Of a DNA stretch of 64,000 nt, positions 2,591 through 53,465 are shown one piece after another; position 1 is the first letter of the stretch, and each line of letters begins with the position of its first letter. The notes beneath the pieces were generated by a model. The model ran no database searches. It saw only the letters and a program-made list of their open reading frames with translations, and had not been told where the DNA came from. This stretch comes from a virus: positions 8,896 to 72,895 of IMG/VR virus record IMGVR_UViG_3300011445_000018; one strand, written 5' to 3'. Both the position numbers and the translations under genes were made by a program.

Positions 2591-2732
2591 TTTGTTCTCC
2601 CTCAAAAGGTTTCGTGCATCCACAATTCTCACACCGAGATACTTGTGTTCGTAGTTCGCCGCATTGGCTACATTTCACAGGTTTCTTAACAACTGTCAAA
2701 CTAACGCTTTGTCCAAGATTCATGCTACTCAT
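2538..2732 (-). CDS. small CxxC-CxxC zinc-ribbon protein
   Basis: CSQCG...CENCG; start is coupled to the tape measure stop. Confidence 0.45.
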   Translation of the reverse strand: MSSMNLGQSVSLTVVKKPVKCSQCGELRTQVSRCENCGCTKPFEGEQNVPKADEPVQAERSSKA

Positions 2733-25051: not shown

Positions 25052-26160
25052 TACGCCACCTTAATACCGAACTCCGCCGCATCCACGGCCGCAGGTAGCC
25101 ACGCGGCTGACGTATCTGGATCAACTTCAAAAATACCAGCTTTAGCAGTATAGGATGTTGTCATACCTATTGCAGCACTATCGGCTTCTGTACCATTACT
25201 TCGAGCCACTGTTTTAAGGTCAGCAGCCCCGACATCTACTTTCTTACCTAGAACTTTAACACAAACGGCTTTAACTGTTACAACAGCGGCGGGTAGATTT
25301 TCGTATGCATAGGTATCTTTGTTTGTAGTAGTTGGGCTTTCCACATAAGTGGAATCGTCATCTGGTACACCATCATCATCTACCAAGAGATAATTATCAG
25401 TGCTATCGGCATCTGAACCAACAAATTGAGAACTATTACCATTGCCCGTTGGTATTAGTTGTTTGACTTGTACATCGCCCAAGAAATCATTATTAACAGA
25501 GCCGCTTGTATCAGCGATATAAAGATCATCAAAATCAATTGATGGAACGGTGGTCACTGGTATAGTTGATCCTATGACCAGGGCCGTTACACCATTATCA
25601 TTCAGAAGAGTATCTTTACCAGTTGCAGCTAGCTCTGATACACCATTTATGCATATTTCAATCGTACCAGTGGAATTATGAGAAAAGAACTTCAGTTCTA
25701 CATAGTACCAATTGCCAGCGACCAAGACAGTGGAAGTTGCTCCTACACCAGAAAAGTTCGTGAATGCACCGCCCGAGCGAAAGCCTGGTACTATTTGTTT
25801 CGAGCTATTAATAGCCAAAAGAATATTATACTGACTATCACCGGTACCACTAGCAGAAAGAATTCCCGCAAAGACTGCGAATCCGCTTTCATTAAAAGTG
25901 TTGACTTTAATAGCAAAACCAACAATAATGGTGCTACCACCAGCCAAGCCACTGCTAAAACTTTTTCCTTGAATGTTATTTGGCGTTTCATCATTGGTCG
26001 CTGTTCCAGGAACGATACGTAAACATTTATCCCCATTACGACCTGTTTGGATTGTTTGGGTCATGGTCCCAACGGGCTGAACATCACTGAATGCACTATA
26101 TGCACCCGGCAAATCAGCCGTTTCTAACCAATCAAAGCCTTCTACTAGCTTAAGTGCCAC
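25051..26160 (-). CDS. concanavalin-A/LamG-like structural protein
   Basis: EGFD; W.YVELK....G..E..ING; FDDLYI.D. Confidence 0.6.
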   Translation of the reverse strand: MALKLVEGFDWLETADLPGAYSAFSDVQPVGTMTQTIQTGRNGDKCLRIVPGTATNDETPNNIQGKSFSSGLAGGSTIIVGFAIKVNTFNESGFAVFAGILSASGTGDSQYNILLAINSSKQIVPGFRSGGAFTNFSGVGATSTVLVAGNWYYVELKFFSHNSTGTIEICINGVSELAATGKDTLLNDNGVTALVIGSTIPVTTVPSIDFDDLYIADTSGSVNNDFLGDVQVKQLIPTGNGNSSQFVGSDADSTDNYLLVDDDGVPDDDSTYVESPTTTNKDTYAYENLPAAVVTVKAVCVKVLGKKVDVGAADLKTVARSNGTEADSAAIGMTTSYTAKAGIFEVDPDTSAAWLPAAVDAAEFGIKVA

Positions 26161-27805
26161 GTTTTTCCTCTTTACTTGCGTTTGCTACACCACCTAGTTC
26201 CGGCGTTCCGCGTGCTTGGGCCTGACTCTCAGCGATCCTTTTAACGCGATCAGCGTGCTCTGTTTTAGCTTTCTCTACTACCCCTTCGGGATAACCCTTG
26301 GCTTTGCTCGCTGTTTCAGCGTCAATCAAACCAAGTTCGATGTCACTTTTGAGTTCTTCGCTATCACCAATAATAACACTTGCTTCCTCTACCTCTTTGT
26401 TAATCTTATCAAGTGTTTCTTTTGATATATTTGGTCCAATTAACGTGTTCGCTGTTATTTTGAATACCTCTTTTTTATATGTAATTGATGGATGACTTTT
26501 AGCGGATTCCTTTAGATCTTTTGCCTCATCACGCCGCTCTTTATCGTTTTGGAGAGTGTATTTCTCAGGATATTTAACAGTTGGTACAACGCCCTTACGA
26601 TCCTCGTACCATTGCCAATATTTAGCTATCCTACGTTCACCGTGTTCTAGTTCCAAAGCAATAGCGGAAAGACCGGCTTCAAGACTTCGTTCATCAAAGC
26701 TCTTACTTTCACCTGATGCCATTTTAGGGGTTAGATTAGAAACATTAAGCTTAACGAGCATTCTTATATCTCGTTTAAGCTCATCTTGTTTCTGCATACT
26801 AGCTAGCAAGGGTGCTGTTGGCGGAGCGATGAACTCCGGCATCATCAGACCAAGAGGTATTCGTCTACCTGTGGTTGTTCCTACCTCGATTTCGTATTCC
26901 TTAGCAGCAACACTATCTTTTCGTTCACCGCTTTCAACGATCGTTACATCGCTACCAGCAGGTCGTCGATAAAGGTTATCAACTCGTGGATCGTATTGCT
27001 CAACATAGAAGGGAAAGTTACTTTTAAGAGCGTAGGCAATATCACTACTAGCGAGATTGAGGAGGGCAATCTGATAATTAGCTATGTTCTTTAACAAACT
27101 ATGCGGAAGCTCAAATGTAACAAATGGAATCTCAGGTAAATTGATAAATTTAGGCTCTTTAATCAATTTGTAATTATTATCATAATAATTAACAACTACC
27201 TGACCATCCATCAAGCGGAAAAGTCTCAATTCTTCTATACAATTATCAGGTAGGCCGAATTCATTATATGTATGAACATAATTACGTAATAGAACCATTT
27301 TATAGGTATCGGAATAGGGATCTTTTTCCCAATTGATAATATCCTCAGCCTTATAGTGATAAATATATGGTTGAATGTCTCTCTGATCTCTAAGAGTAAT
27401 TGTACCATTTAGTTCACTATTATCAATGAACACGCCAACTCGTTTCATGGTCGTTAATTCCGTCAATATGACGCGACCTATGAAACTATTCATCGTCGTA
27501 CCGGCTAAATCAATACCTTTACCTATGCCGCGTACTGCTTCGTTATAATTAACACTTCCACCAGTGCGTGTTACATCGGATATGCGTTGAAAAATACTAT
27601 CCTTAACTTCATCGACCGCTGCTGCAGCGAACGCTGGAACATAACTAATGCATTTGCGTTCAGCGAACTCTGGATCGCTTTCACGACTACTGAATTTCTT
27701 CAGATAACGCTCAATGAATTCGTCACCGGCTTCATAAGTGAGACGCCACTTACACCAGTCAACTTCATCGCGTTCGTAATCAGGATGCTTGATGTCGTCT
27801 ATCAC
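26150..27805 (-). CDS. portal protein
   Basis: 551 aa directly after the large terminase; HPDY...W.......G...YL.....E...F..R, IINW, IPFV, SGE.K..D. Confidence 0.85.
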   Translation of the reverse strand: MIDDIKHPDYERDEVDWCKWRLTYEAGDEFIERYLKKFSSRESDPEFAERKCISYVPAFAAAAVDEVKDSIFQRISDVTRTGGSVNYNEAVRGIGKGIDLAGTTMNSFIGRVILTELTTMKRVGVFIDNSELNGTITLRDQRDIQPYIYHYKAEDIINWEKDPYSDTYKMVLLRNYVHTYNEFGLPDNCIEELRLFRLMDGQVVVNYYDNNYKLIKEPKFINLPEIPFVTFELPHSLLKNIANYQIALLNLASSDIAYALKSNFPFYVEQYDPRVDNLYRRPAGSDVTIVESGERKDSVAAKEYEIEVGTTTGRRIPLGLMMPEFIAPPTAPLLASMQKQDELKRDIRMLVKLNVSNLTPKMASGESKSFDERSLEAGLSAIALELEHGERRIAKYWQWYEDRKGVVPTVKYPEKYTLQNDKERRDEAKDLKESAKSHPSITYKKEVFKITANTLIGPNISKETLDKINKEVEEASVIIGDSEELKSDIELGLIDAETASKAKGYPEGVVEKAKTEHADRVKRIAESQAQARGTPELGGVANASKEEKRGT

Positions 27806-29445
27806 TATAACCTACTATTAACATTGTGCGAGTAGCCAATGGACGCTGCGAGCGGGAGAGCTATTTCGCTATAATTGCGTGAATGGGCAAAGTGATCATC
27901 ACTACTACCAGCTTTGACATATTTACCAACAGGGTTGCCATCTACATCTTTCTCATAGATGCGAACCAGGGACATTATATGTCTTTTGAACTCCCTTGGA
28001 ATATCTTTCGGTAGAATGATGGTACCAGTTTTAAAGCGGCTCTGACTCATATCAAGCCAACTGGTACGATCAACATTAACCGTTAATTCCTCACGATTGA
28101 CATTCAATTGCTTGCCAGTGATGCCACGTGCGTAGGTACATAGATGCACCCGGCCCCAGTGGCGTGTTGCGAACTCAAAAGCTTTACGGCGTTCAGGTTG
28201 CATATCAATTATACAACTTGTGACGTTGTATTTGTTCATCAAGTCGTCTAATTGAAAGAAATCCACTGCTTTACCGACCGCTATAACTTGCGGTCTGCTT
28301 TCAGTATTAAAATCCGCAGTTGTACCACCAATGTTCCATTTCTCTATTACATAGTGTAGATATGTTCCTACGTCTACACCCATTGTTGTTAAGCCGTTAC
28401 TATTAACAGTTAGCGTTATGTAGTCACCGATGCAACCGTCAATATCTTGCTCGTTAACTTTAGCTCCGTCTACAACGTGCGGTTGGCCTAATTTGCTGTT
28501 AAAGAATTCCTGTTCATCTGCTGGGTTGCTTTGTGCCCTGAAATAAGATTGAACGATATTGGATGGATGGACGGTGGAACTATACAACTGATTAATGCCC
28601 CAACCAGCAACATCTTTATCCTGGAATTGCGGAATCCACCTACCGGTGGATAACCAATTGGCTTTTGTCTCTTGGGGTAGTACGTTGTTGCACAACGTAC
28701 ATTTCAGGGTACTCTTCTTTGTTTCTGGGTCATCATGGTCATCTCCGACGATCACAATGCTCTCTGGCCATGTTAAATTTATATATTTACTACAGGAGGG
28801 ACATTTGAAGAAGAATTCATTTTGCGTACTGTTCTTAAATGTCTCATTTATGCCGAAATTATCAATTGTTGGAGTGGATATTTCCCAAGTCTTGTGAATG
28901 TTGTACCCTGATTGCCGTTCGCGAGCCAATGGTATGTTTTCTTGATTCATTTCGTCTTTCTCATCAAGAATTAACACGCCCACCGGTACGCTTTTCAATC
29001 CAGACCGTGACTTGGCACCACGGATGTAAAGATTTGTGTTCCCCGCACGCTTGTGACCCACATTTTTAACATCACTGAACATTTTCCTTAAATGTGGGCT
29101 TAATTCCAAGGCTGGATCAAAGCGTGCAGCGGAAAAGTCACTAGCGTCCGGCGTTTTAGAGGGTAAAACATACAAACAATCGACCTGATGTATGTCAATA
29201 TAGAAAAAAACCACGTTTAAGACAGTCTCAGTGAAACCCATTTGGGCGGCTTTCTGACCTACATTCAAATCATAGTCCGACATGTGCATATCAAGGAGCC
29301 AGGGATGCCTTCTAAAGCTCCAGGGACCCTCGAACGGTCTACCAAGGACGCGGTATTCGCTCGCCCATTTAGCCGCAGAGATTATACTCTTGCGTCTTAG
29401 GGCACTTGATACTCGCTCAGTTAATAGGGTTGCTAGCTCGTGCAT
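27805..29445 (-). CDS. terL: terminase large subunit, lambda gpA family
   Basis: K.AQMGFTE Walker A, LILDE.D Walker B, ISTPT, CP.C..C..C, GVDVG nuclease, DH..H. Confidence 0.93.
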   Translation of the reverse strand: MHELATLLTERVSSALRRKSIISAAKWASEYRVLGRPFEGPWSFRRHPWLLDMHMSDYDLNVGQKAAQMGFTETVLNVVFFYIDIHQVDCLYVLPSKTPDASDFSAARFDPALELSPHLRKMFSDVKNVGHKRAGNTNLYIRGAKSRSGLKSVPVGVLILDEKDEMNQENIPLARERQSGYNIHKTWEISTPTIDNFGINETFKNSTQNEFFFKCPSCSKYINLTWPESIVIVGDDHDDPETKKSTLKCTLCNNVLPQETKANWLSTGRWIPQFQDKDVAGWGINQLYSSTVHPSNIVQSYFRAQSNPADEQEFFNSKLGQPHVVDGAKVNEQDIDGCIGDYITLTVNSNGLTTMGVDVGTYLHYVIEKWNIGGTTADFNTESRPQVIAVGKAVDFFQLDDLMNKYNVTSCIIDMQPERRKAFEFATRHWGRVHLCTYARGITGKQLNVNREELTVNVDRTSWLDMSQSRFKTGTIILPKDIPREFKRHIMSLVRIYEKDVDGNPVGKYVKAGSSDDHFAHSRNYSEIALPLAASIGYSHNVNSRL

Positions 29446-31042: not shown

Positions 31043-31795
31043 TTATTGAGTTTTGAACTGCTCCAAAAGAGCTAATGTTTCTTCGATGCTCATTGGCAAA
31101 GGGCCGCTGAAACCTTTCCTTCCATCGCTGATAGCAATCCATGGTAAGGTTACAGCGGTTGGCCTTATTTTGAAATACGCATCGGTTAAAATAGTATTTG
31201 TATTGCGAAACATCTCTTTGGTATAGTCATCATCCCAAATGCGAAAAGCTGGTTGGCCATCTAGCTTACCGCAATTTAGATTACACCACTTCAGAATTTT
31301 GCTAGAGACGAAGATGTTTCTTTGTGGAAGTGGTAGCGTTCCGCTACCACCGGCCTCGCGAAGCATAAGGACGGTTAATACGTTTGTTGGGAAGGGGACA
31401 TCGGTAACGGGTGGATCAATTGGGGGCTTTGGCGGAGTAGGGCCTATTGGCCCTACTATTTTGAATGTTGCATCGACCTTGCGAATTGGACCATCGATAA
31501 CATCAAACGTCTGATCGTTGACTGTTATTTTTCTTAATGGAATAATGATACATTCAATTTTATATGTTCCAGCGTTCCCCCAAATAAATAATTTGTTTCC
31601 AACCGTTTCTGACTCAAGCGTACTTGGTACGCTCCACAGGTTGGTTCCGTTTGGACCATCTGTTAATGTTGCTACTATTTTCTTACCAACAGGCGTTTCA
31701 TTTGGAACTGATATTTCTTCAGAATGTATGTTACTCGTTAAAAATAACAAAAAAAGTACGATTTTAGCACAGTTTTTTGACAAACGTTTTATCAC
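31043..31795 (-). CDS. exported protein: signal peptide, Ig-like domain, Pro linker, thioredoxin-like C-terminus
   Basis: RBS AAGGAG before GTG; IVLFLLFLTS; PTPPKPPIDPP; LPW...GPLP. Confidence 0.55.
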   Translation of the reverse strand: MIKRLSKNCAKIVLFLLFLTSNIHSEEISVPNETPVGKKIVATLTDGPNGTNLWSVPSTLESETVGNKLFIWGNAGTYKIECIIIPLRKITVNDQTFDVIDGPIRKVDATFKIVGPIGPTPPKPPIDPPVTDVPFPTNVLTVLMLREAGGSGTLPLPQRNIFVSSKILKWCNLNCGKLDGQPAFRIWDDDYTKEMFRNTNTILTDAYFKIRPTAVTLPWIAISDGRKGFSGPLPMSIEETLALLEQFKTQ

Positions 31796-31891
31796 TTTTT
31801 CTCCTTTGTTAATAAGAGGGTCCATACTAGTATACGCAGTTTTCATTGAAAAATTAACTAAAAAATTTTTGTCAAAAAAGTGTGCTAAAAT
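31761..31891. repeat. inverted pair of 24-bp TTTGTCAAAAAAGTGTGCTAAAAT sites
   Basis: Copies at 31761-31784 (reverse, 1 mismatch) and 31868-31891. Confidence 0.85.
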
Positions 31892-32113
31892 CTGAAAAAT
31901 TTTAAAATTTTTCAGTTAGAAATATGTTTCATGACATCTTGCTAAATTTATCATAGACCAGGAACGCTCGTACGCTCGGACCATGAATTATGATACGTGA
32001 ACGCTCGGGCCATAAAATTTCCATATTTCTCGCACAGAATAGGGGGTCCAGCGTTCAGTGAACAGATGTCACTTGGTCGACGGTTGTACACCCCTCCCCT
32101 GGGTAGTGGTGAT

Positions 32114-32433
32114 TAGTTACTAGGCAGCAACTGCCTAGTAACTAGGCACAGGCAACCGATGCTAATTTAACAGGCAGCCTAGTAACTAGGCAACGATTGC
32201 CTATGCTACCACACTAGACAAACCATGCTACATTAACAGGCATGGCATGCAGTGCCCCACGATGGGCCGTGTTGCGTGATACGCTGAACCATGTGCATTG
32301 GACGTGATACGTGGTAACACGCAACACGGGTCACGCTAGGTACTCTACAACCTATTTCGCCCGTGTTGCATGATCGATGGTCAAGCCATACTGGCATACG
32401 TCGCAATCGATCATGCAACACGGGTCACGCTAG
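32114..32433. repeat. palindrome and repeat cluster
   Basis: TAGTTACTAGGCAG-caa-CTGCCTAGTAACTA at 32114-32144; 19-bp inverted repeat 32360-32378/32406-32424; 19-bp direct repeat at 32321 and 32415. Confidence 0.9.
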
Positions 32434-32451
32434 AAGCCTTCCTGAGGCAAC

Positions 32452-32514
32452 ATGAACGATGAACGATGAACGATGAACGATGAACGATGAACGATGAACG
32501 ATGAACGATGAACG
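32452..32514 (+). repeat. (ATGAACG)9 tandem repeat
   Basis: Nine perfect heptamers plus a degenerate tenth. Confidence 0.98.
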
Positions 32515-32704
32515 ATCAACCTGATCAATTATAGTACAGCACTTAAATCTATACGCTGTAACATGTTACATCGACTATGAAACCAAAGCGATCAAGGTGG
32601 TCAAATGTAGTACAAGGGGTATTTATACCCCCTAAACCCACTATATGTGACGTAAACCAAAACGGACTCAGTGTTTGCGACAGGGGTAAAAATAAAATCG
32701 CAAA

Positions 32705-32720
32705 CGGCATGCCTCTTGCT
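32705..32720 (+). promoter_or_regulatory. sigma54-type (-24/-12) promoter
   Basis: CGGCATG-CCTC-TTGCT has exact GG-N10-GC spacing; structured RNA begins near the predicted +1 (~32731). Confidence 0.55.
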
Positions 32721-32734
32721 ACTACTACCATTTC

Positions 32735-32838
32735 GGCTGACTGACCCGACCTTGACTCAGTCGCGTGACGCCCATAGCGTGCACGCGGGGACCGAAAACA
32801 TTTTGTTTTTGGTCGTCAGGATTCACGGGTCGGCGGTC
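32735..32838 (+). ncRNA. structured leader RNA (multi-helix junction)
   Basis: Helices CTGACCCG/CGGGTCGG, CCTTGAC/GTCAGG, CGCGTG/CACGCG and GACCGAAAACA/TGTTTTTGGTC. Confidence 0.55.
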
Positions 32839-33152
32839 AATAAGACATAGAAAGGGACAAACGAACATGCGGGGCTGAGCCAGCCTTAGGCCGATGACAA
32901 AGTGAATCACTAATAACGACCCATGGTAACATGGGGCGGGCGGTTTCAATCCGCAAACTTTCAATCGCTATACGGCTATGCATCATGCGATGCTAAGTGG
33001 AATCGTAAGATAGTCAATCGATTCGTTAGCGGGCGAATTATAGAAACGTTGGGAACACGGTTTGCCACAAGCAATTGTCGTGAAGTGCAAACTATCTATC
33101 AACGTCTGAACGATAGGTTAGTGTGGACCTAGTTGCCCCATAAGGGGACACT

Positions 33153-33470
33153 ATGAACACACAGACCATTATCCAACTTAACAAACTACCTTCGTTGCAA
33201 TCTCTTGACAAGCCAGCACTGGCCATGACAGGGGAGCAAACACGGCAACGGAGTTACCTGGAATCAGTCGCGGATTTGGATGCTACAATTAACAGCATCG
33301 AACGTCGCGTCAAAAGCGAAAAGGTAGCATACGAAAAGGCTACCAATCAACCTTGGAAAACGAGCGATGGCAAATCGCATTTCACGTGCGAACAAGCCAT
33401 CGACCATGCTTACGCGAACAAGTGCAAGTGGGTAAAGTGCACCGGAATCGGTATGATTTGGCACAGTTAA
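33153..33470 (+). CDS. hypothetical early protein
   Basis: RBS AAGGGG; enclosed by a 28-bp stem. Confidence 0.75.
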   Translation: MNTQTIIQLNKLPSLQSLDKPALAMTGEQTRQRSYLESVADLDATINSIERRVKSEKVAYEKATNQPWKTSDGKSHFTCEQAIDHAYANKCKWVKCTGIGMIWHS

Positions 33471-33507
33471 CACTTTTCGGGGCAACTAGGCCCATACTAA
33501 CCTATCA

Positions 33508-33563
33508 GGGGATGGTTGCTTTGGCTGTTTTAGCCTGTTAAAATGTCCAAGGGAGCCATCCCC
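33508..33563 (+). ncRNA. hairpin carrying the antisense of the repeated motif
   Basis: GGGGATGGTTGCTTTGG pairs with CCAAGGGAGCCATCCCC. Confidence 0.6.
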
Positions 33564-33580
33564 ACAAACAAGGAAACCAC

Positions 33581-33787
33581 ATGAACGGTAAATGGTATAA
33601 AGGTAACAATGCATACTACTTTGTGGACAATGAAAATTATGCCTATCGTGTTTGGGAAAATGGTAACGTTATGGGAATGTCCGAATACGACGCCACTAAT
33701 CTAATACGCGGATTGTGCACTGAGATACCTTGTCCGGCATTCGGTGCAAGTGCTTTGAAAGATTTACAACGTCTATTGGAGCAATGA
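33581..33787 (+). CDS. hypothetical protein
   Basis: RBS AAGGA. Confidence 0.75.
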   Translation: MNGKWYKGNNAYYFVDNENYAYRVWENGNVMGMSEYDATNLIRGLCTEIPCPAFGASALKDLQRLLEQ

Positions 33788-33837
33788 TGACAATCGCAAT
33801 CCTCCTCGTGCTTCTAGTCTTGTTACTTCTAGTCTGA
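33787..33837 (+). CDS. 16-aa hydrophobic micropeptide MTIAILLVLLVLLLLV
   Basis: TGATG overlap with the upstream stop; GGAG upstream. Confidence 0.5.
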   Translation: MTIAILLVLLVLLLLV

Positions 33838-33874
33838 TTTTCGGGGCTTTTGATAAAGCCCCATAGCAACCATC

Positions 33875-34086
33875 CCTAATACACGAGTATTGGCTTTGAG
33901 TAACAATCGGGGCTTGCCACGATTTGTTAACTCTAGCTGATTCAAAGCACACGAACTAATCCAATTAGGTCAATTGATATTGTTAACAACCCTTGCGGCT
34001 TAAAGTGCTATTGAATGGTACGGAAGGACGCAACGTTGCCAACGCGATATGGCTTAGCGTAACGAAGCCAATACTCGTTTGTTAGG
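33875..34086 (+). ncRNA. structured ncRNA cassette A
   Basis: 23-bp closing stem, internal helices, no ORF, motif on both sides. Confidence 0.65.
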
Positions 34087-34118
34087 ATCAACCATCCCCA
34101 ATTACAGGAGCTATTACA

Positions 34119-34418
34119 ATGCTCAAGTTTGTTGACATCGGTCGCAAAGGCTATTTGGTAATTGCCGAAATTAGCCCAGATGACAAGTTATGTCGATCCA
34201 TTGGCTTTCTGGACTTAACATCGCCGATCAGACCAATGGCGACCGTTGCCGCCGACTATGTCATGGACACAGTCAATTTGTTAAATGAACGAATTGCCAG
34301 ATTGCCGCCGTTCATACAACAAGCCATTGTGCCAATCGTTCGCCCGATCACCGATCCACAATTCGTGCAAGAATGGCACTACATCGAAACCAGCGAGCCA
34401 TTGTCCTTGTTAAATTGA
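34119..34418 (+). CDS. hypothetical protein
   Basis: Motif followed by RBS AGGAG. Confidence 0.75.
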   Translation: MLKFVDIGRKGYLVIAEISPDDKLCRSIGFLDLTSPIRPMATVAADYVMDTVNLLNERIARLPPFIQQAIVPIVRPITDPQFVQEWHYIETSEPLSLLN

Positions 34419-34485
34419 ACAAATGCCCGGTCAGCCAGGGGCAATACTGGTTGAAAGCAACCATCCCTAACAGAAAGGACAAATA

Positions 34486-34743
34486 ATGAAAGAGTACGTT
34501 GTGCGTGTTGTTATTCCCGATATTGACAATGACATATTGGGATTGGCAAAACCAATCGATGGAGCATTTCTTGAATGTCTACGCTATGCTGGTATTGTTA
34601 AAATTCACACTTCTGATACTGGCCAAGTATTTGATATTCGTTGCCCAGACGTTGTTAAAATGTCCAAAAATTGGGCAAATGCCAATGCCGACCGCATGAA
34701 AAGCTTTGGCTACAATGCCGTCGCCGCACCAGCCTATGAATGA
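34486..34743 (+). CDS. hypothetical protein
   Basis: Motif followed by TAACAGAAAGGA RBS. Confidence 0.8.
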   Translation: MKEYVVRVVIPDIDNDILGLAKPIDGAFLECLRYAGIVKIHTSDTGQVFDIRCPDVVKMSKNWANANADRMKSFGYNAVAAPAYE

Positions 34744-34810
34744 TTCCCTCCCCGGTATTGTGGGAATTAACAATGCCGGAAGCAACCATCCCTAACAGAA
34801 AGGACGAACA

Positions 34811-35035
34811 GTGGACAAAAGTATTCTTGAAGGTAAGTTGTCCGAAATTCGCAGAATTCGTACAGACAGCAAACAAATGTGGCATCTGTTCGCACGATAC
34901 AAGGATTTGGCCAATTTCACATGTACACGCGAGCCACTTGAAGTTTTCGCGGAAGCTAAAATTAACAAATTGGCCGCCGAATTAACTACTTCGGATTTGT
35001 GTACACTTGTTGAACTACTGACACGTGCAAAGTAA
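34811..35035 (+). CDS. hypothetical protein
   Basis: Motif followed by TAACAGAAAGGA RBS; GTG start. Confidence 0.75.
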   Translation: MDKSILEGKLSEIRRIRTDSKQMWHLFARYKDLANFTCTREPLEVFAEAKINKLAAELTTSDLCTLVELLTRAK

Positions 35036-35103
35036 ATGACCCTTTAACTGGTTGTTAGGATTAACAACCAGAAAGCAACCATCCCTAACAGAAAGGTCAA
35101 ACA

Positions 35104-35307
35104 ATGGTAGTATACTACAAAATAGAATACACCATAACTAATGGTGATTCCGACAAGGAACATCTCTGTCGTAAAATCGTGGGGATACAAACAAGAAAGC
35201 AACATGAATTATTCAAACTAATTCATGAAATGCTTGAAGAAGAACACGATTGTTTTGAAAAAATCACCAATGTTTACATGGAACCGATTACAATTCATTT
35301 GTTATAA
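35104..35307 (+). CDS. hypothetical protein
   Basis: Motif followed by TAACAGAAAGGT RBS. Confidence 0.75.
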   Translation: MVVYYKIEYTITNGDSDKEHLCRKIVGIQTRKQHELFKLIHEMLEEEHDCFEKITNVYMEPITIHLL

Positions 35308-35400
35308 CCTTTAACTGGTTGTTAGGATTAACAACCAGAAAGCAACCATCCCCAAAGCAAGCCCATCGTAATGCCTCCTTGTTAAAAGGGAGAATTTACC

Positions 35401-36816
35401 ATGAGTTCAGTTGACGAATCTGGAAGCGTGCAACGTCTGAATGTCGAAACAAAGCATGTGGTTTTTCACCCGGACTTCCTAGTCCCCGCGATCAATCCAC
35501 GTGATTTGTCCGACTTGCAAGGCGAAACACTGTACCCCGCGATCGAAGCAACAGGGGGTAAGATCACGACGGCCTTGGTGGTCTGGAAACCGGTCAATGA
35601 TCAAGGGGAATTCGACCCCGATCATCCGATCTGGACCAGTGGGAACATTCACGATACCTTGACAGGTAAAGTGTTAGTTATACCACACGGCGAGCGACAC
35701 AAGTATCGCATACTCGTCCAAGGGCACCGTCGGCATTGGTGTGCAAGAAAAGCACTGTCACAACCTGATGTTTGCCCGGCTGAGATGATAAAGAATCTCA
35801 CCAAATTGCCGTGCAATGAAATCACTTGTACTCAGGAAGTGGCCGAGCGTCTTGCTCTGGATTTCGAGACATCGGAACCAATGCACAATTGGAATGTCAT
35901 CAAGCTGATTTTCGGCTTCATGATGAAGGACATCAAGTACACCGAGATCGCTTTGTTGATGCCGCGAATGCTGTTCCGTGCTTTGCTCAACGACGGTGAA
36001 GCTAAATATAACAAGCTTCTCCGCGAGGCAAAGTCCGGTCGCGATCGCGTTGCTGCCATCAAATCGGCTCTCAAGAACCGGCTTGACCAGCATACCTACT
36101 CCTGTTACCTCTTTGGCCCAGCAATGCAGAAGCAATTGCTTTTGTATTGGCGATACGTGAAAAACGAATTGCAGGACATCGGAGATCGCTATCTGCTCGT
36201 CATGGACATGAAGTACGAATTGGTGCAAAAGCTGCGAACTTTGTACAACGAAGAAGTGAAAGTTCACGGTTGGGCACCAATTACACGAGTGGAAATCGTT
36301 GATGCCAAACCCAACGATTCGCAGAATGTTTCGTACGCTCAGACGCCGGGCAATACCAGTGTCCAAGGACGCTGGTTTGTCATCGAGGGCGGATCAGAGA
36401 ATTTTCGGCAAGCTATGCTGAAAAATATGCTGGTCTATGCCAAGCCAGAAGCGGCAGAGGAAGAGAAAAAGCCACCTACTCAACAAGAGCGGAAGGCAAT
36501 TATCAATTCCACTGCCAGTGGCATCGGCAAAGCCTTCTCCAAGTTCTATGATGAAAGTTTCACGGAAGAAACATCAGGCAAATACTTGGATGCTCCACGC
36601 CTACGCGTCCAATGGGAAGAATGGGCGTTGTTTTCTGAATCGACTCAGAAAGCAATGCTCGATTTCGCCGACCAATGCGATCCATTGGTTAAGGAATTGT
36701 TGGTTGCTGCCACAAGCCAAGCGGCTCCGGGGGCAGCGGCAGAACGTGTCAAGACCGCGATTGCCACGTTGAACGAAGCGTTAAAGCCAGTTACAGTTGT
36801 GTCGAAGAAGAAGTAA
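35401..36816 (+). CDS. divergent ParB/Srx-domain protein
   Basis: NPR...L...I...G.I...LVV and Y.ILVQGHRR ParB-like motifs; RBS GGGAG. Confidence 0.6.
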   Translation: MSSVDESGSVQRLNVETKHVVFHPDFLVPAINPRDLSDLQGETLYPAIEATGGKITTALVVWKPVNDQGEFDPDHPIWTSGNIHDTLTGKVLVIPHGERHKYRILVQGHRRHWCARKALSQPDVCPAEMIKNLTKLPCNEITCTQEVAERLALDFETSEPMHNWNVIKLIFGFMMKDIKYTEIALLMPRMLFRALLNDGEAKYNKLLREAKSGRDRVAAIKSALKNRLDQHTYSCYLFGPAMQKQLLLYWRYVKNELQDIGDRYLLVMDMKYELVQKLRTLYNEEVKVHGWAPITRVEIVDAKPNDSQNVSYAQTPGNTSVQGRWFVIEGGSENFRQAMLKNMLVYAKPEAAEEEKKPPTQQERKAIINSTASGIGKAFSKFYDESFTEETSGKYLDAPRLRVQWEEWALFSESTQKAMLDFADQCDPLVKELLVAATSQAAPGAAAERVKTAIATLNEALKPVTVVSKKK

Positions 36817-36905
36817 CATTCGGCATTGTGTCGGGTGTTTGTTTAACAAACGTCTTTCGCAAGGGGGCGTTACAATGGGCTTGCTAACTCTAACAAGGAA
36901 AACGT

Positions 36906-37121
36906 ATGTCACCACGTTACTATCGTTTATGTGTCAAACGAAATGGCTACTGGCATGAAGTGGCACGAATCGGTAAATCATTAGCCGTTTCAAGAGACAA
37001 TGCCATATTGTTACTTGGCAGTTGGAACGAATTAGACGCAATTTTCGGCATGGGGAATTGGTCTGTTACTACTGACCTTTCCCTCGACTTTGTTACTTGT
37101 GTAACATCTGACATCAATTAA
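36906..37121 (+). CDS. hypothetical protein
   Basis: RBS AAGGA. Confidence 0.7.
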   Translation: MSPRYYRLCVKRNGYWHEVARIGKSLAVSRDNAILLLGSWNELDAIFGMGNWSVTTDLSLDFVTCVTSDIN

Positions 37122-37139
37122 CAAAAAGCAACCATCCAC

Positions 37140-37236
37140 TAAACATTATAGAGTTGAGTTGCCAGTGCTTATATATAAAATGCGATTCGCGTTTATCGCA
37201 TATTAAGTTACTGGCAACTCTACTGTGTGATGTTTG
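37140..37236 (+). ncRNA. long hairpin ncRNA cassette B
   Basis: GAGTTGCCAGT/ACTGGCAACTC, AAACATTATA/TGTGATGTTT and TGCGAT/ATCGCA; lies between two motif copies. Confidence 0.65.
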
Positions 37237-37250
37237 AAAGCAACCATCCT

Positions 37251-37405
37251 AAATGTCACAAAGCTGGGCTGTCAGCTAATGCTGGCCGCACTGCATGATA
37301 ATGTGTAGCAAGGCATTCTGATGCCATTCAGATTGCTATGTGGTTTCGACAGCCATAACAGTGTCGCATGTCTAAAGGCCCTGACAGCCTAGCTTTGTTA
37401 CATTT
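37251..37405 (+). ncRNA. structured ncRNA cassette C
   Basis: 25-bp closing stem AAATGTCACAAAGCTGGGCTGTCAG/CTGACAGCCTAGCTTTGTTACATTT with inner hairpins. Confidence 0.65.
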
Positions 37406-37433
37406 AACCATCCCCAAAAACAAGGAAACAGTC

Positions 37434-37613
37434 ATGCAAGTCGAAGGCACAATTCGATACAAAGACACGTATCGAGATCTTATCAAAGCCTTAATGGGAC
37501 ATGAAGATGTTCTGGATAGGCCCATCATCGTGCAAATTGAATTGCCAGGAGGCATAAATTTCATTCTAGATGATGAAGATAACAAAGAGCGTAGAATATT
37601 AACGTTTGAATAA
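37434..37613 (+). CDS. hypothetical protein (start MQVEG)
   Basis: Motif followed by RBS AAGGA. Confidence 0.7.
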   Translation: MQVEGTIRYKDTYRDLIKALMGHEDVLDRPIIVQIELPGGINFILDDEDNKERRILTFE

Positions 37614-37692
37614 TTTCGCTGGACCTTTGTTAAAAGGTCCAGAAGCAACCATCCCTAAATATGTGGTACTGGGCCATTAGAAAGAATTAACA

Positions 37693-37944
37693 ATGTTTCA
37701 CTTCGACATTACATGTGAAGATGTTCGCCTAATCGCGAACGAAGTAAGCCCAACAAGTGTAAGAGTGACGTTGTACGACAATCTCAGTGGCAAAAGTCAC
37801 TTGCTACAGTCTGTTAGTTTCTGTGATTTTGAAAAAATGGTCAGTGGTATGATTTGTTGCCACGGTGACGTACCAGCGGAAAGTTACCCAGCTTTAGAAG
37901 AAATTCTGAAAGGTTGCCCGAACGAGTGTCGGCCCATTCCTTAG
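37693..37944 (+). CDS. hypothetical protein
   Basis: Enclosed by a 25-bp stem. Confidence 0.7.
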   Translation: MFHFDITCEDVRLIANEVSPTSVRVTLYDNLSGKSHLLQSVSFCDFEKMVSGMICCHGDVPAESYPALEEILKGCPNECRPIP

Positions 37945-38018
37945 CGTCTAGCGTTCGCTGGTCCAAAACAATGGCCCAGTACCGTGTATTTAGGTGCAAT
38001 CATCCCAGGAGACAAATT

Positions 38019-38231
38019 ATGACAACACTGTACCTCGTTGTTAAATATAACGAGGCAAATGTAGCTCGTTATATTGGGTACGTCTTGTTAAATGGTGCAG
38101 CGTGCAAAGTCATGGAAGCATCAATTATGGAAGATGTTAATGCCTACATGAAAATGCATGGCTACACTGAATTCAAATGGCGTGTACCCAAGCAACAATT
38201 GTATCAAATGATCCGTGTAAAGGAGTGGTAA
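38019..38231 (+). CDS. hypothetical protein (start MTTLY)
   Basis: Motif followed by RBS AGGAG. Confidence 0.7.
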   Translation: MTTLYLVVKYNEANVARYIGYVLLNGAACKVMEASIMEDVNAYMKMHGYTEFKWRVPKQQLYQMIRVKEW

Positions 38232-38256
38232 TGATTCTTGACTATAAAGGATCAAT

Positions 38257-38529
38257 GTGATGCTATATTTCGCCCTCTATGAACAATTAAAGGAGATTGT
38301 TCAATCGGAAGTGTTTGAGATCACTTTTGTTAAAAAAGATGGATCAACAAGAGTGATGAAATGTACCCTGACAGACCACCAGGAAACATTACTAAATGGA
38401 CTGTGCCCTGTTTGGGACATCGAGAACAATGGGCACCGCAGCGTTAATCTTAACAAAGTGGTGCAAATGATCTTTAACGACAAAGCCTACACCATAAAGG
38501 ATGAAAAATGGCAGTGTGTTTCACTTTAA
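38257..38529 (+). CDS. WYL_2 / Sm-like SH3 beta-barrel protein (DUF2693-like)
   Basis: ITF.KKDGSTR.M.CTL ... VWD.E..G.RS. Confidence 0.8.
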   Translation: MMLYFALYEQLKEIVQSEVFEITFVKKDGSTRVMKCTLTDHQETLLNGLCPVWDIENNGHRSVNLNKVVQMIFNDKAYTIKDEKWQCVSL

Positions 38530-38576
38530 CATTGTTAGCTTTGTTACTTCTTCTTAGCCTTCTGCTAAAAATATAA
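38508..38576 (+). CDS. 22-aa hydrophobic micropeptide MAVCFTLTLLALLLLLSLLLKI
   Basis: AAGGA 6 nt upstream; single transmembrane-length segment. Confidence 0.5.
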   Translation: MAVCFTLTLLALLLLLSLLLKI

Positions 38577-38629
38577 CGCTGGTCCAGCGTTCATGTATCA
38601 AGGAGACAATAGTCTTTGTTAAATGTATC

Positions 38630-38672
38630 AAAATGGCCGATAATCCGTACATGGATTATCGGCCATTTTTTT
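38630..38672 (+). terminator. intrinsic terminator between convergent operons (probably bidirectional)
   Basis: AAAATGGCCGATAATCC-gtacat-GGATTATCGGCCATTTTTTT. Confidence 0.9.
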
Positions 38673-38745
38673 GTTACCTTTAACATTTCCTTACTTTGTT
38701 AATTTTAACAAAATGCATGATACCTGGCTTTGTTAATTTTAACAA
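38671..38745. promoter_or_regulatory. repeated palindromes TTGTTAA-TT-TTAACAA
   Basis: Copies at 38695-38712 and 38730-38745, with a degenerate copy at 38671. Confidence 0.6.
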
Positions 38746-38747
38746 TT

Positions 38748-38915
38748 CTATTGGTTCTTTTCTAAAACCTCAATACGGCTAATCAGGTTAGTTATCTTGC
38801 ATCCTTCTGCAGCTGCAATCATAGATAACACCATAATGAATATTACTCCTACACACCCCCAATCTTCGCCAATGGTGATTTGGATTTCGTGTTTATGTTT
38901 TATTTCGTCTGCCAT
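38748..38915 (-). CDS. small membrane protein
   Basis: Transmembrane segment WGCVGVIFIMVLSMIAAA. Confidence 0.5.
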   Translation of the reverse strand: MADEIKHKHEIQITIGEDWGCVGVIFIMVLSMIAAAEGCKITNLISRIEVLEKNQ

Positions 38916-38916
38916 T

Positions 38917-39120
38917 TTAAGTCCGTTCTGTGAAACGCCTACGCCTCTTATTACAATGCTTACATTGTACCCCACGAATCTTCTCTAAAGATTTATCCAC
39001 CATTACACTTTTACCTCCGCAAATAGTGCACTCCACATTGTAATAAATACGTGAACCAAGGGAGTATGCAATGCTCTTAATTATCTTATTGCCGCGAACA
39101 TCATTCAGTTTGAATTTCAT
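38917..39120 (-). CDS. zinc-ribbon protein
   Basis: CTICG...CKHC. Confidence 0.55.
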   Translation of the reverse strand: MKFKLNDVRGNKIIKSIAYSLGSRIYYNVECTICGGKSVMVDKSLEKIRGVQCKHCNKRRRRFTERT

Positions 39121-39179
39121 CTCATACCTACAAATTTTTAAAATTTTACATGGTCCAAATGGCATGTTTCAAAGTAACA

Positions 39180-39659
39180 ATTTAGCACACTTTTTTGTCA
39201 ATCATTTTGCACTTTTTTGCACACTTTTTTGACAAAAATTTAAACGCCATTAGCGGCTCGCCTGACGGTGCTCGCCGAAGGCGTGTCGACAGTCGCAGGG
39301 CCGCTCGTTCGCCTACCTGTGTCAATGCGCGGAGCGTTCCCGGTCATCCTACGCGGTACGCCGGTCACCTACGTGGGAACTGACTGGCACGACCTTGGCT
39401 CCTATTCTTCCCCCTACTATCTTACATACTCTCTTTTTTTTCGATGGTCTAAGGATATAGAGAGAGTAGAGTCAGTCAGTAAGGAAACGTAAACGCGCAT
39501 GGCGTAAGGACTTACGTCGATTGGGCATAATTGCCTATCTTACCCATCCCTATCCATATTGCCTATCGTTCACATTTAGCCAAATGGGCACCGTAAAAAA
39601 GTTTGTCAAAAAAGTGTGCTAGAAAGTGAAAATTGCTTGTCAAAAAAGTGTGCTAAAAT
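39180..39659. other. candidate replication origin or control locus bracketed by inverted TGTCAAAAAAGTGTGCTA repeats
   Basis: Reverse copies at 39180 and 39215, forward copies at 39602 and 39637; non-coding core. Confidence 0.45.
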
Positions 39660-39683
39660 GGTGCTTAAACACGTAAGGTAAAT

Positions 39684-40001
39684 CTATGTAGTCAATTTGA
39701 CTACAGTCTTTGGGCTAAATGACATAATTCCGAGCAAAGCACCCTTTTCATAAGTCATTTTCTGCCCGAAATTGATAATCCTAACAAAAGGTAGGTGTAC
39801 AGCGTAACAAAAAACATCTCCTGTACACTGTAAATGCACCAAAAAACCTAAAATATTGAACGCACTTTCCAAATTAAAGCCCAAATCCATGGTATAAATG
39901 CCTCCCATGTCTATCACAAATGGCTCGTTGACAAAAATCTGTAACGTAGTGCTATCCAGTTGCTTAGGTAGGTAACGTGTTGATACATTTATCAGCTTCA
40001 T
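39684..40001 (-). CDS. degenerate dUTPase-fold-like protein
   Basis: Spacing of P....S, I..G, D.G and N.G.....KG......F.P; catalytic motifs absent. Confidence 0.35.
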   Translation of the reverse strand: MKLINVSTRYLPKQLDSTTLQIFVNEPFVIDMGGIYTMDLGFNLESAFNILGFLVHLQCTGDVFCYAVHLPFVRIINFGQKMTYEKGALLGIMSFSPKTVVKLTT

Positions 40002-40239
40002 CTATTAGTTCCTGTAACTTTTTATGAATGGCATTACGTGCCAAGTCAGCTATTCTAGCCATTTGTCGCTCGTTCGAGCGTTCATGGTCCAGCGTTCGCT
40101 CGTTCGAGCGTTCATGTTCCAGCGTTCGAGCGTTCACAAAATATTCCTCCAGCCAATCTAAAATATGGTCCGCTTCATCAATATTGTTGCACGCTAAATG
40201 CACTATACTGCCACATCTCGATATTGTTGGTTGTATCAT
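39964..40239 (-). CDS. hypothetical protein containing a DNA-motif repeat
   Basis: RTL(E/D)HERSNE twice. Confidence 0.55.
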   Translation of the reverse strand: MIQPTISRCGSIVHLACNNIDEADHILDWLEEYFVNARTLEHERSNERTLDHERSNERQMARIADLARNAIHKKLQELIDEADKCINTLPT

Positions 40240-40460
40240 AACAAACGTACAGTTGTCCGACTGTTTTGAATGACAAAATGCTCGAAATACCCCTCTTTCG
40301 GGGGGTAATTAGCGATATGCGACGTTTCAAGTACGCGTAAAATGGCATCAACATCAGTTAATGGAAGAAAAGTGACCCCATAATCCAATGTTAGATCGTC
40401 ATTTTCCCTACAAAAGAGTATTTTATTACTCCTCACGCAACGAAACATTGCCTGTCGCAT
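40236..40460 (-). CDS. hypothetical protein
   Basis: Coupled ORF. Confidence 0.5.
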   Translation of the reverse strand: MRQAMFRCVRSNKILFCRENDDLTLDYGVTFLPLTDVDAILRVLETSHIANYPPKEGYFEHFVIQNSRTTVRLL

Positions 40461-40722
40461 AGTCTTTCACCCGCTCAAGGTATTTATCCTTCCTTAAATT
40501 CGACAAACAGCGTAAAATCTCATCCTCAGGCATACGTATTGACGTCCGATGACGTATAATTGCACAGAATTCCATACATTCCGTAGGATGGAAGAGGAAT
40601 TGCTCTACCGTAGTGTGTTTCGGCTCGTAATCTCTCCACCATAAGCGTGCTACCTCGAAGAAAAAATCCTCAGTTTCCTTTTTCCAACCGTAAATTGCTA
40701 ATCGATCACTGATTTTCATCAT
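40426..40722 (-). CDS. hypothetical protein
   Basis: Coupled ORF ending in L.NLRK. Confidence 0.6.
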   Translation of the reverse strand: MMKISDRLAIYGWKKETEDFFFEVARLWWRDYEPKHTTVEQFLFHPTECMEFCAIIRHRTSIRMPEDEILRCLSNLRKDKYLERVKDYATGNVSLREE

Positions 40723-40792
40723 TGTTCGTTGGTCCCTCGTTCATTGTTAATGTTTTAGCGTTCGCTGGCCCGAGCGTTCACGGAACGCTATT

Positions 40793-41635
40793 CTAGCGTT
40801 CAGCGTTCATGAAATTAGGTTCAGATTGTACAATTTTCATGGCTTCAATCAAACATTTGTTAATTTTAGTACCCTGAAACAAAGATTTTAAACGATTCTC
40901 CTCCGTTCGACCGTAATCGAAATTATAATAACTATTTATTGCATTGTAAGCTCCCCATAATGTGTCCTCTGTGTAATATACCTTTATTTTCTCAATAACG
41001 CTGGTACGAGCGTTCCCTAAACAAGCTTTCCAGTATTCAATGGCCAATGATAATGTCATTTCATGATATGTAAGTGGCCACATACTAGCAATCTCACGAT
41101 CAATATACTTAAATTGCGAAACAACATCATCTACAAATCGACCGACTTTTTCCTCAGCGTTCAAAGTATGGCGAAATTTGCTCATGTATTTACCAATAGT
41201 TGGTAACATATTTGAACAAGTAAGCCTGTAAGGTAAAATGCCAGCTTGAATTGATGTATGTCCATTGTGACCATTCATAAGTAAGAGGTAACATTGAATA
41301 GCGTCCCCTCGTACATTGTACATTTGATCCACTAATTTTAACATACACCAAACACGAGCACCATTGTCCAATGTACCAATACTATCCAATCGACCAATAT
41401 TTCGTGTAACAATTTCCGAGCTAATCAAAGCTAGTATTTCGTTTTGTAGTGGCTTGAATTTCTTCCGACACATTCCTAAGACAGCTCGGTTGTCAGTACG
41501 CAGAATATAGTAATATCCCTTGGCCGCTATTCCGTTTATTAAGAACCCTTGTTCCACGTCAACGATGAAATTAGCTCCTGCTTCCTTGAAAGCTGTTCCA
41601 ACGTTCAAACAATCACTAACATCTATTCCTATCAT
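40793..41635 (-). CDS. DUF932/DUF945-family protein
   Basis: RTD...VLG......LQN, G.L..G.RVW, YLLL.NGH.G, R..C.N.L, RHT, TLWGAYNA. Confidence 0.85.
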   Translation of the reverse strand: MIGIDVSDCLNVGTAFKEAGANFIVDVEQGFLINGIAAKGYYYILRTDNRAVLGMCRKKFKPLQNEILALISSEIVTRNIGRLDSIGTLDNGARVWCMLKLVDQMYNVRGDAIQCYLLLMNGHNGHTSIQAGILPYRLTCSNMLPTIGKYMSKFRHTLNAEEKVGRFVDDVVSQFKYIDREIASMWPLTYHEMTLSLAIEYWKACLGNARTSVIEKIKVYYTEDTLWGAYNAINSYYNFDYGRTEENRLKSLFQGTKINKCLIEAMKIVQSEPNFMNAER

Positions 41636-52681: not shown

Positions 52682-52833
52682 AACCCTAAAGCGATCTCTA
52701 CCTCTTTTTTCAACTGTTGCATTACGTACTGGTGATCCTCGTTATCACCAACAATTGCCACCATTTCCACTCGTTCGGTTTCGTAGTTACCAAGATTCTT
52801 AACACGTTGATATCTTACTTCTATAATACGCAT
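52636..52833 (-). CDS. hypothetical protein
   Basis: Y.R..NLGNYE..R motif. Confidence 0.7.
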   Translation of the reverse strand: MRIIEVRYQRVKNLGNYETERVEMVAIVGDNEDHQYVMQQLKKEVEIALGLWKTQTCVTENLLKA

Positions 52834-53465
52834 TTCAATCTCTCAAATAATTGCTCTTTGATTTTATGAACATAAGTTGTTGATACACCTGTTTCTTCTG
52901 CTATATCATTTAATACATACCCTCCCTCTATTATACGGTTAATGATAATACGTTCCATTGGATTACGGATTATTTTCTCAATGAAATCACGAAAGTCCAC
53001 GGCCCCTGGTCCATGGTCCTTGTGACCTATTTCATGTGACAGAGTTTGAGATGTCGCTGGATTAGCTTTGCGACCTTTGGTACGTATAACCGATTGGTTA
53101 TAGTAACTTTTACAATAAGCTTTGAGCTTGTTATAGATAGCGGAATTAACATAATTAGTGAATTCCGCTTGCGAGCGTATTGTTCCTTCGTGAACAATAC
53201 GTGTTAATTCTAATAGAGCGATACCTATCGCATCATGACGATTGATATACGAACCAGGAAAGCGTTTAGCTATTTTTAACGCAAGTGGAATATAGCTGTG
53301 TATTATTTGTTCCTTGGTAGCTTTTTGAAATTCTTCAGAACTTATGGAATCATATCTCCGATAGATCCCCGCCACATAATCTTCCTTACTTATGGAGTGA
53401 AAATAGGGACCTGGGGAACATCCCCAGGCCCCTGGCTCGGACAATCTCAAGTCATGATTGCACAA
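52821..53465 (-). CDS. sigma70-family (ECF-like) sigma factor
   Basis: Region 2 Y..LA.KIA.RF...D....AL..L...F..Y; region 4 HTH L.DIAE..GVS...V. Confidence 0.75.
   Translation of the reverse strand: MCNHDLRLSEPGAWGCSPGPYFHSISKEDYVAGIYRRYDSISSEEFQKATKEQIIHSYIPLALKIAKRFPGSYINRHDAIGIALLELTRIVHEGTIRSQAEFTNYVNSAIYNKLKAYCKSYYNQSVIRTKGRKANPATSQTLSHEIGHKDHGPGAVDFRDFIEKIIRNPMERIIINRIIEGGYVLNDIAEETGVSTTYVHKIKEQLFERLKCVL

Follow-up and report, generated by a model that had tools for sequence, protein, structure and literature searches.

The 212 bases at 33875-34086 form an ORF-less slot between two copies of a 13-nt motif, AAGCAACCATCCC, and constitute slot A of an array of phage early genes on the + strand (33.5-38.0 kb), in which three slots are gene-free. 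The reading that we favour, and to which we give an even chance, is that this element is a processing or insulating stalk of the RNase III type, set in an array that resembles PeSL or SAS/ESAS repeats. The element is a real feature within an interesting array; the evidence at hand does not mark it out as a specialised folded RNA.

The window, which is the whole stretch of 64,000 nt analysed here, corresponds to positions 8896-72895 of a virus record of 72,895 bases that is classed as linear and estimated to be 80% complete. It belongs to a tailed phage that has not been cultivated and was sampled in metagenomes of freshwater sediment and groundwater, and the closest cultured phages share a terminase identity of only about 25%. 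DNA of the phage is present in 24 public runs (freshwater sediment, groundwater and related metagenomes), none of which is on record as RNA. The Logan contigs of four runs, which are of low depth and blind to rare forms, contained neither variants nor joints and were identical to the window, so that population variation was not available for use. Structural genes occupy the minus strand from 0.7 to 31.8 kb, in a block that includes the following:

2729-6877, minus strand: tape measure
26150-27805, minus strand: portal
27805-29445, minus strand: large terminase (TerL)

The replication genes are likewise on the minus strand, from 40.8 kb onward (DNA polymerase, helicase, ligase, ParB-like, HNH, ThyX and DHH phosphoesterase). 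The two blocks are separated by a repeat-rich intergenic region (31847-32900) and by a + strand module (32.9-38.6 kb) made up of small orphan genes. A Pfam scan of ten small proteins of the module gave no match above threshold, and a 471-aa protein gave a ParB_N-like lead only. No relatives of this protein, of a 280-aa protein or of the 99-aa protein flanking the element were found in viral contigs, and none of TerL in genome contigs.

The array is delimited by the boundary motif. With one mismatch allowed, AACCATCCC occurs 28 times in the window, compared to an expectation of 11.35 ± 3.54, and the extended form (AAG)CAACCATCC(C) has 12 copies on the + strand, from 33554 to 38006:

33554-38006, + strand: array of 11 slots (8 with an ORF, 3 ORF-less), defined by 12 motif copies
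33509-33523, minus strand: sole inverted motif copy, from the motif scan

One more exact 9-mer, at 46822 within the minus-strand gene block, is probably a chance occurrence. The start codon lies 19-21 nt past CCATCC in six of nine gene slots, and 13, 38 and 49 nt past it in the remaining three; a Shine-Dalgarno-like stretch can be read between motif and start codon in every gene slot. Ahead of every motif copy, which is itself single-stranded, stands the 3′ arm of a stem; some of these stems are local hairpins of 8-10 bp that lack a T run, and the others are long-range. Two adjacent slots that encode unrelated proteins have an identical 44-nt boundary, which fits boundary-mediated exchange. 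No −35/−10 hexamers are present in motif AAGCAACCATCCC, and a sigma-70 scan of 31800-40900 returned 20 sites (19.2 expected), none of them at a motif copy. The motif could serve as a promoter for some factor, be a site of cleavage or protein binding, have a part in translation, or be a recombination linker.

Outside the window, a 16-mer of the motif was matched at 36 loci in viral contigs, once at each, which we took as chance, and a 20-mer was matched at one locus in genome contigs as a single copy, again at chance level. A two-motif slot pattern retrieved 20 loci from metagenome contigs, and those inspected among them with at least three copies proved to be unrelated tandem or coding repeats. 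Two further observations concern the motif. The inverted copy and the first + strand copy (33554) form a 25-nt inverted repeat with 76% complementarity (33508-33563), and pairing with the inverted copy in a + strand RNA would sequester the first motif of the array. In addition, PHROG weakly relates a 214-aa protein on the minus strand (52821-53465) to RNA polymerase sigma factors (E 3e-4), with nothing found in Pfam; should the match be genuine, the protein might recognise a promoter specific to the phage, for instance the boundary motif.

Within its slot, the element is organised as follows:

33865-33876, + strand: left boundary motif copy AGCAACCATCCC, from the motif scan
33875-33897, + strand: 5′ arm of the closing stem, from the inverted repeat and the fold
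33898-33933, + strand: inner hairpin GAGTAACAATCG/CGATTTGTTAACTC, 36 nt, about 13 pairs with bulges, pair probability 0.65-0.85
33934-34063, + strand: interior, ORF-less, stops in all frames, structure at chance level (z −0.51)
34064-34086, + strand: 3′ arm of the closing stem, from the inverted repeat and the fold
34090-34098, + strand: right boundary motif copy, with the ATG of the 99-aa gene 21 nt downstream

The earlier note on this DNA had described the motif as flanking both sides exactly as it does for protein genes, and this holds, with bounding copies at 33868 and 34090 like those at the protein slots. The element slot measures 222 nt, compared to 241 to 369 nt for the gene slots. The absence of an ORF was likewise confirmed: the longest frame encodes 30 aa from a TTG start, and all six frames carry all three types of stop codon, which also led us to discard a recoded gene. 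A 15-aa ATG frame exists inside the element in frame +1, and no Shine-Dalgarno sequence was seen before it by eye. TTGTTAAC words occur inside the element at 33924 and 33980.

The whole element folds at −71.5 kcal/mol (z −5.36; 0 of 200 shuffles as good) and ranks about 14th among 1595 sliding 212-nt windows after GC correction. The closing stem that the note had proposed is well supported: an inverted repeat (33875-33896 / 34065-34086) with 22-nt arms and 91% complementarity folds into a stem of 23 positions of which 22 are paired; a single C·U mismatch separates helices of 7 and 15 bp, and the pair probabilities are 0.79-0.95. The last two C of the left motif copy form the first two pairs of this stem. 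The proposed inner helix is also recovered, being present in both the MFE and the centroid folds, and is not significant on its own within the element interior. For a third helix, ATTCAAAGCAC/GTGCTATTGAAT, the claimed complementarity exists (11 bp and one bulge), whereas the pairing is not predicted, having a probability of 0.002 and a cost of 4.4 kcal/mol when forced (−67.1 versus −71.5 kcal/mol). The description of the element as a multibranched RNA is not borne out, as the interior without the closing stem (33898-34063) has a z of −1.14, with 30 of 200 shuffles as good, and removal of the inner hairpin as well (33934-34063) leaves 54 of 200 shuffles as good. Given that the interior folds like shuffled sequence, the non-random signal of the element is its terminal stem.

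This stem is one of five long inverted repeats in the module, with arms of 22-28 nt and 85-93% complementarity, of which three surround the ORF-less slots and two surround complete genes, encoding 105 and 83 aa. Besides the element, these are:

33112-33139 / 33479-33506, + strand: stem enclosing the 105-aa gene 33153-33470 with its Shine-Dalgarno sequence, ORF and stop; 28-nt arms, 93% complementary
about 37130-37242, + strand: slot B, ORF-less, one long imperfect hairpin between two motif copies (z −7.91 for 37137-37234)
about 37242-37406, + strand: slot C, ORF-less, 26-nt closing stem around 105 nt (z −5.40 for 37249-37404)
37654-37678 / 37970-37994, + strand: stem enclosing the 83-aa gene 37693-37944; 25-nt arms, 88% complementary

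Under a strict count (at least 22 nt, at least 85% complementarity), the region 33000-38100 contains four repeats, compared to none in each of 100 dinucleotide shuffles, and the rest of the window (54.9 kb) contains only one repeat of at least 20 nt at that complementarity. Slot C resembles the element in that its interior alone has a z of −0.39, compared to −5.40 for the whole. Slots B and C gave only sub-threshold, miRNA-precursor-like matches in Rfam. The stem of the 83-aa gene begins directly after the motif at 37647 and stops directly before a degenerate motif at 37996-38006. Since the same type of long stem surrounds two ordinary protein genes, we regard the stem as a feature of cassette boundaries and not as the mark of an RNA gene.

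The non-Watson-Crick positions of the stems carry information on the strand involved. All three such positions in the stem of the 83-aa gene are G·U on the + strand. Over the five stems (n = 13), eight are G·U on the + strand, one is G·U on the minus strand (A·C on the +) and four are other mismatches, so that the wobble bias of 8 versus 1 has a one-sided binomial p of 0.02. The three ORF-less slots also fold better on the + than on the minus strand (slot A, −71.5 versus −64.6; slot B, −43.0 versus −30.4; slot C, −65.5 versus −53.4 kcal/mol). Together, the G·U bias and the better + strand folds point to pairing within one strand of coding polarity, most simply RNA. G·T pairs form in single-stranded DNA too, and the strand bias is therefore compatible with a role at the DNA level as well. 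The functional RNA that the earlier note had inferred is accordingly upheld in part: the non-coding slot and its coding-strand structure fit an RNA, whereas the distinctive fold does not stand, and the same stem type is found around two protein genes.

Relatives of the terminase in IMG/VR comprise 12 loci (46-69% identity), none of which uses the same boundary motif. In the four closest, the contigs run out at 3.7-4.4 kb upstream of the terminase, within tandem repeats comparable to those of 31847-32900, so that their early modules are beyond reach. Two distant TerL relatives, L046 and L049, carry similar stems around genes. In L046, a stem at 246-790 encloses a 146-aa ORF and has five G·U pairs on the coding strand versus none on the other, and a second at 3695-3864 has three versus one; the L049 stem, at 315-614 around a 76-aa ORF, has no wobbles. 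A stem in a third relative, L041 (4024-4311), runs contrary, with one coding-strand wobble versus two non-coding. A candidate ORF-less analogue in L041 proved to be an ordinary terminator region. This relative, whose terminase is 50% identical, also carries a different word, TTCAGCGAACC, 10-35 nt upstream of small early gene starts (4708-5316); TTCAGCGAACC and the motif studied here have GC(G/A)AACCAT in common. Judged from these sequences, there are hints that gene-start-linked repeats may be a trait of the phage group.

Searches for the element itself were negative. Rfam gave no match at gathering thresholds over the whole window and a best local match of E 1.9 over 33700-34250, in keeping with the earlier statement that no known RNA family could be recognised; tRNA and tmRNA searches also found none. 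With blastn, neither 33400-34500 nor 32900-38700 matched any of 50,697 phage records, and 33800-34120 matched none of ten records of TerL relatives. A covariance model built from the single sequence and its MEA structure found nothing in five of those ten records, and within the window its matches were limited to the element, the reverse strand of the element and a single further match (E 1.5). Applied to 20 metagenome loci, the model gave two weak partial matches (E 0.0067 and 0.14), which we judged to be chance, each spanning only 34-69 nt. No second copy of the element was found elsewhere in the phage genome, and no copies were found in the phage collection, the relatives or the metagenome loci.

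How such stems may act is suggested in part by the regions that bound the module:

31869-31891, + strand: promoter-like repeat TTGTCAAAAAAGTGTGC followed by TAAAAT, facing the + strand module; one of six copies
38630-38669, + strand: intrinsic-terminator-like hairpin, 18 pairs followed by a T run, ending the module

The upstream promoter-like repeat and the strong terminator fit a single operon. None of the internal hairpins of the array has a T run, and sigma-70-like sites show no enrichment. In the simplest model, stems punctuate a polycistronic early transcript; alternatively, each slot may be read from its own motif. Stems of ~22 bp or more have the ideal substrate length of E. coli RNase III, and on this basis the long stems can be read as stalks that serve processing or insulation. 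With 22 pairs in the element and arms of 25-28 nt in the remaining four stems, the lengths correspond to the ~22 bp, or about two helical turns, of an RNase III substrate. By analogy to the T7 early signals or to the stalks of 16S and 23S rRNA, the stems would be cut by RNase III, assumed here to exist in the host, or would insulate the units, and cutting would free an RNA of ~170-210 nt whose ends are paired. The selected feature of the element would then be its stem rather than its interior. The array thereby offers a concrete and cheaply testable hypothesis, namely stem-directed processing of an early transcript.

Known systems share some of these features. The stalks of 16S and 23S rRNA enclose whole functional units, as do the stems here. 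The T7 signals are local hairpins of about 60 nt, whereas four of the five stems described here span 105-339 nt and lie beside a conserved 13-nt motif. In T7, an early precursor of ~7000 nt contains five processing signals, and the ideal E. coli substrate is given as 22 bp (PMC3867540). The resemblance to T7 lies in double-stranded RNA, here predicted, between the cistrons of a phage early module, and in arms of 22-28 nt that are close to this ideal length (PMC3867540).

The promoter-early stem-loops (PeSLs) of T4-type phages are similar in their order of stem-loop, conserved sequence, Shine-Dalgarno sequence and ATG, and as repeats that bound small orphan genes in a variable early region (PMC2839356, PMC4122927); as with PeSLs, unrelated genes in the present array are bounded by identical sequence. 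The conserved part of a PeSL is, however, a strong sigma-70-type promoter with an AT-rich upstream region (PMC2839356), whereas AAGCAACCATCCC is not of sigma-70 type and sigma-70 sites are not enriched around it. The portions of the PeSL literature consulted describe no ORF-less and no gene-enclosing stems.

The SAS/ESAS repeats of Cluster K mycobacteriophages offer the likeness of a 13-bp asymmetric repeat in 11-19 copies, confined to non-structural regions, with all copies but one in the same orientation, and positioned upstream of start codons (PMC3203893, PMC12699233). Inverted repeats lie directly upstream of roughly half of the SAS copies, and the function of SAS/ESAS is described as still unproven (PMC3203893, PMC12699233). 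The SAS itself contains the Shine-Dalgarno sequence, with the consensus GGGATAGGAGCCC, 3-7 bp from the start codon (PMC3203893), and the ESAS repeats have a common conserved 17-bp consensus, for which the authors found little support for RNA pairing (PMC3203893, PMC12699233). In contrast, the motif of the present array has a different sequence, is separate from the Shine-Dalgarno sequence and lies 13-49 nt from the start, and its stems each have their own sequence, with G·U compensation. Stoperators are repressor sites spread across the whole genome, and no repressor or lysogeny module was identified here. The stoperators of Cluster A mycobacteriophages are alike in being 13-bp asymmetric intergenic sites oriented with transcription (PMC3203893).

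Repeated boundary motifs in phage early regions are thus already known from PeSL, SAS/ESAS and stoperators, with mechanisms that are mostly unproven. In the present array, long stems accompany the boundaries, show coding-strand G·U compensation and wrap both whole genes and gene-free units. Literature searches whose queries were not specific to gene-enclosing stems yielded no account of stems that are compensated on the coding strand, lie next to a motif of this kind and enclose entire genes as well as units lacking a gene.

We consider it unlikely that the element specifies a trans-acting RNA cargo of ~210 nt (a decoy, sponge, anti-defence RNA or small regulator) for which the closing stem does no more than protect the ends. 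Such a cargo would account for an ORF-less slot that retains the intact frame of motif, stem and motif, for RNA-only slots being three of the 11, for structure selected on the coding strand, and for a translated interior without the protein-level similarity that would mark a decayed gene (best E 1.9, against the rest of the genome and the loci of the 12 relatives). However, it sits poorly with an interior whose structure equals that of shuffles, with the lack of an Rfam match or of a homologue by blastn or covariance model, and with slot B, which has no interior cargo. Complementarity to the remaining phage genome is limited to chance-level words of 11-13 nt, which speaks against such a cargo and against an antisense target within the phage. 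A retron ncRNA was likewise rejected, as no reverse-transcriptase domain was found by Pfam in the ten small module proteins or the 471-aa protein. It would be distinctly improbable, in our estimation, that every unit, whether gene or RNA, is cut from the early transcript via its end-to-end stem and 13-nt motif, with the three RNA-only units being end-protected, stable trans-acting RNAs that, for example, soak up a host dsRNA-binding or RNA-sensing factor. Should the gene-free units turn out to be stable RNAs, they would represent a novel type of cargo in phages; otherwise the finding counsels caution, since an excellent folding z-score may derive wholly from one terminal stem that is part of an operon's architecture rather than of an RNA gene.

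Terminal inverted repeats also invite an explanation at the level of DNA, such as a small mobile insertion, an invertible or recombining cassette (through motif crossover, PeSL-like shuffling or mini-circles) or single-stranded-DNA hairpins. Direct AACCATCC copies flank the 22-nt terminal inverted repeats, the identical 44-nt boundary at two unrelated genes is expected under boundary recombination, and PeSLs are reported to mediate such shuffling in T4-type phages (PMC2839356). We nevertheless consider a DNA element quite doubtful, given that there is no second copy in the genome or in any collection searched, that the stem sequences all differ and so leave no shared recombinase site inside the repeats, that the wobble bias favours one strand, that the Logan contigs of four runs contain no joints (at a low depth in which rare forms are invisible), and that no recombinase was found among 40 ORF translations scanned with Pfam and PHROG. 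A miniature inverted-repeat transposable element was dismissed because it needs several copies that share terminal repeats, whereas the element is single-copy in the genome. An empty or decayed cassette, which has lost its ORF or encodes only a tiny peptide from the 15-codon ATG frame in frame +1 and keeps its stem as a functional boundary, would explain the unstructured interior and a slot at the low end of the size range; it is, in our view, an improbable account, against which stand the absence of residual protein similarity, the spread of all three stop types through all frames, and the lack, by eye, of a Shine-Dalgarno sequence before the small frame. As for the processing or insulating stalk that we favour, it needs no 166-nt interior, and the occurrence of ORF-less slots at three of 11 positions suggests that the interiors may matter.

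Several repeats around the module were noted in addition. TTGTCAAAAAAGTGTGC has six copies in the window, compared to 0.75 expected, in two divergent clusters:

31767-31783, minus strand, and 31869-31885, + strand: first TTGTCAAAAAAGTGTGC cluster
39185-39235, minus strand, and 39603-39653, + strand: second TTGTCAAAAAAGTGTGC cluster

The + strand copies are followed by TAAAAT or a close variant, and by their sequence the copies look like extended −10 promoters or operator sites. In the second cluster, the copies form an inverted repeat of 75 nt with 83% complementarity that flanks a 345-nt island (39247-39591) of 53% GC, compared to 41% for the window. The intergenic region 31847-32900 contains eight tandem copies of GATGAAC (32458-32513), several inverted repeats of the CTAGTAACTAGGCA type (32109-32203) and a perfect 19-nt inverted repeat (32360-32378 / 32406-32424), and could be an origin, packaging or control region. 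The word CTTTGTTA recurs in 38540-38746. Just past the module terminator, near-identical palindromes, TTGTTAATTTTAACAA, at 38696-38712 and 38729-38745 look, from their sequence, like operators for a dimeric DNA-binding protein. Finally, the word GAACGCTGG is strand-biased (12 on the minus versus 1 on the + strand, with minus-strand sites including 48122, 48379 and 50231) and, at three or more sites, follows ATGAAAATA by ~40 nt within small minus-strand ORFs whose 5′ ends resemble each other, which looks like a family of small paralogous genes rather than a regulatory motif.
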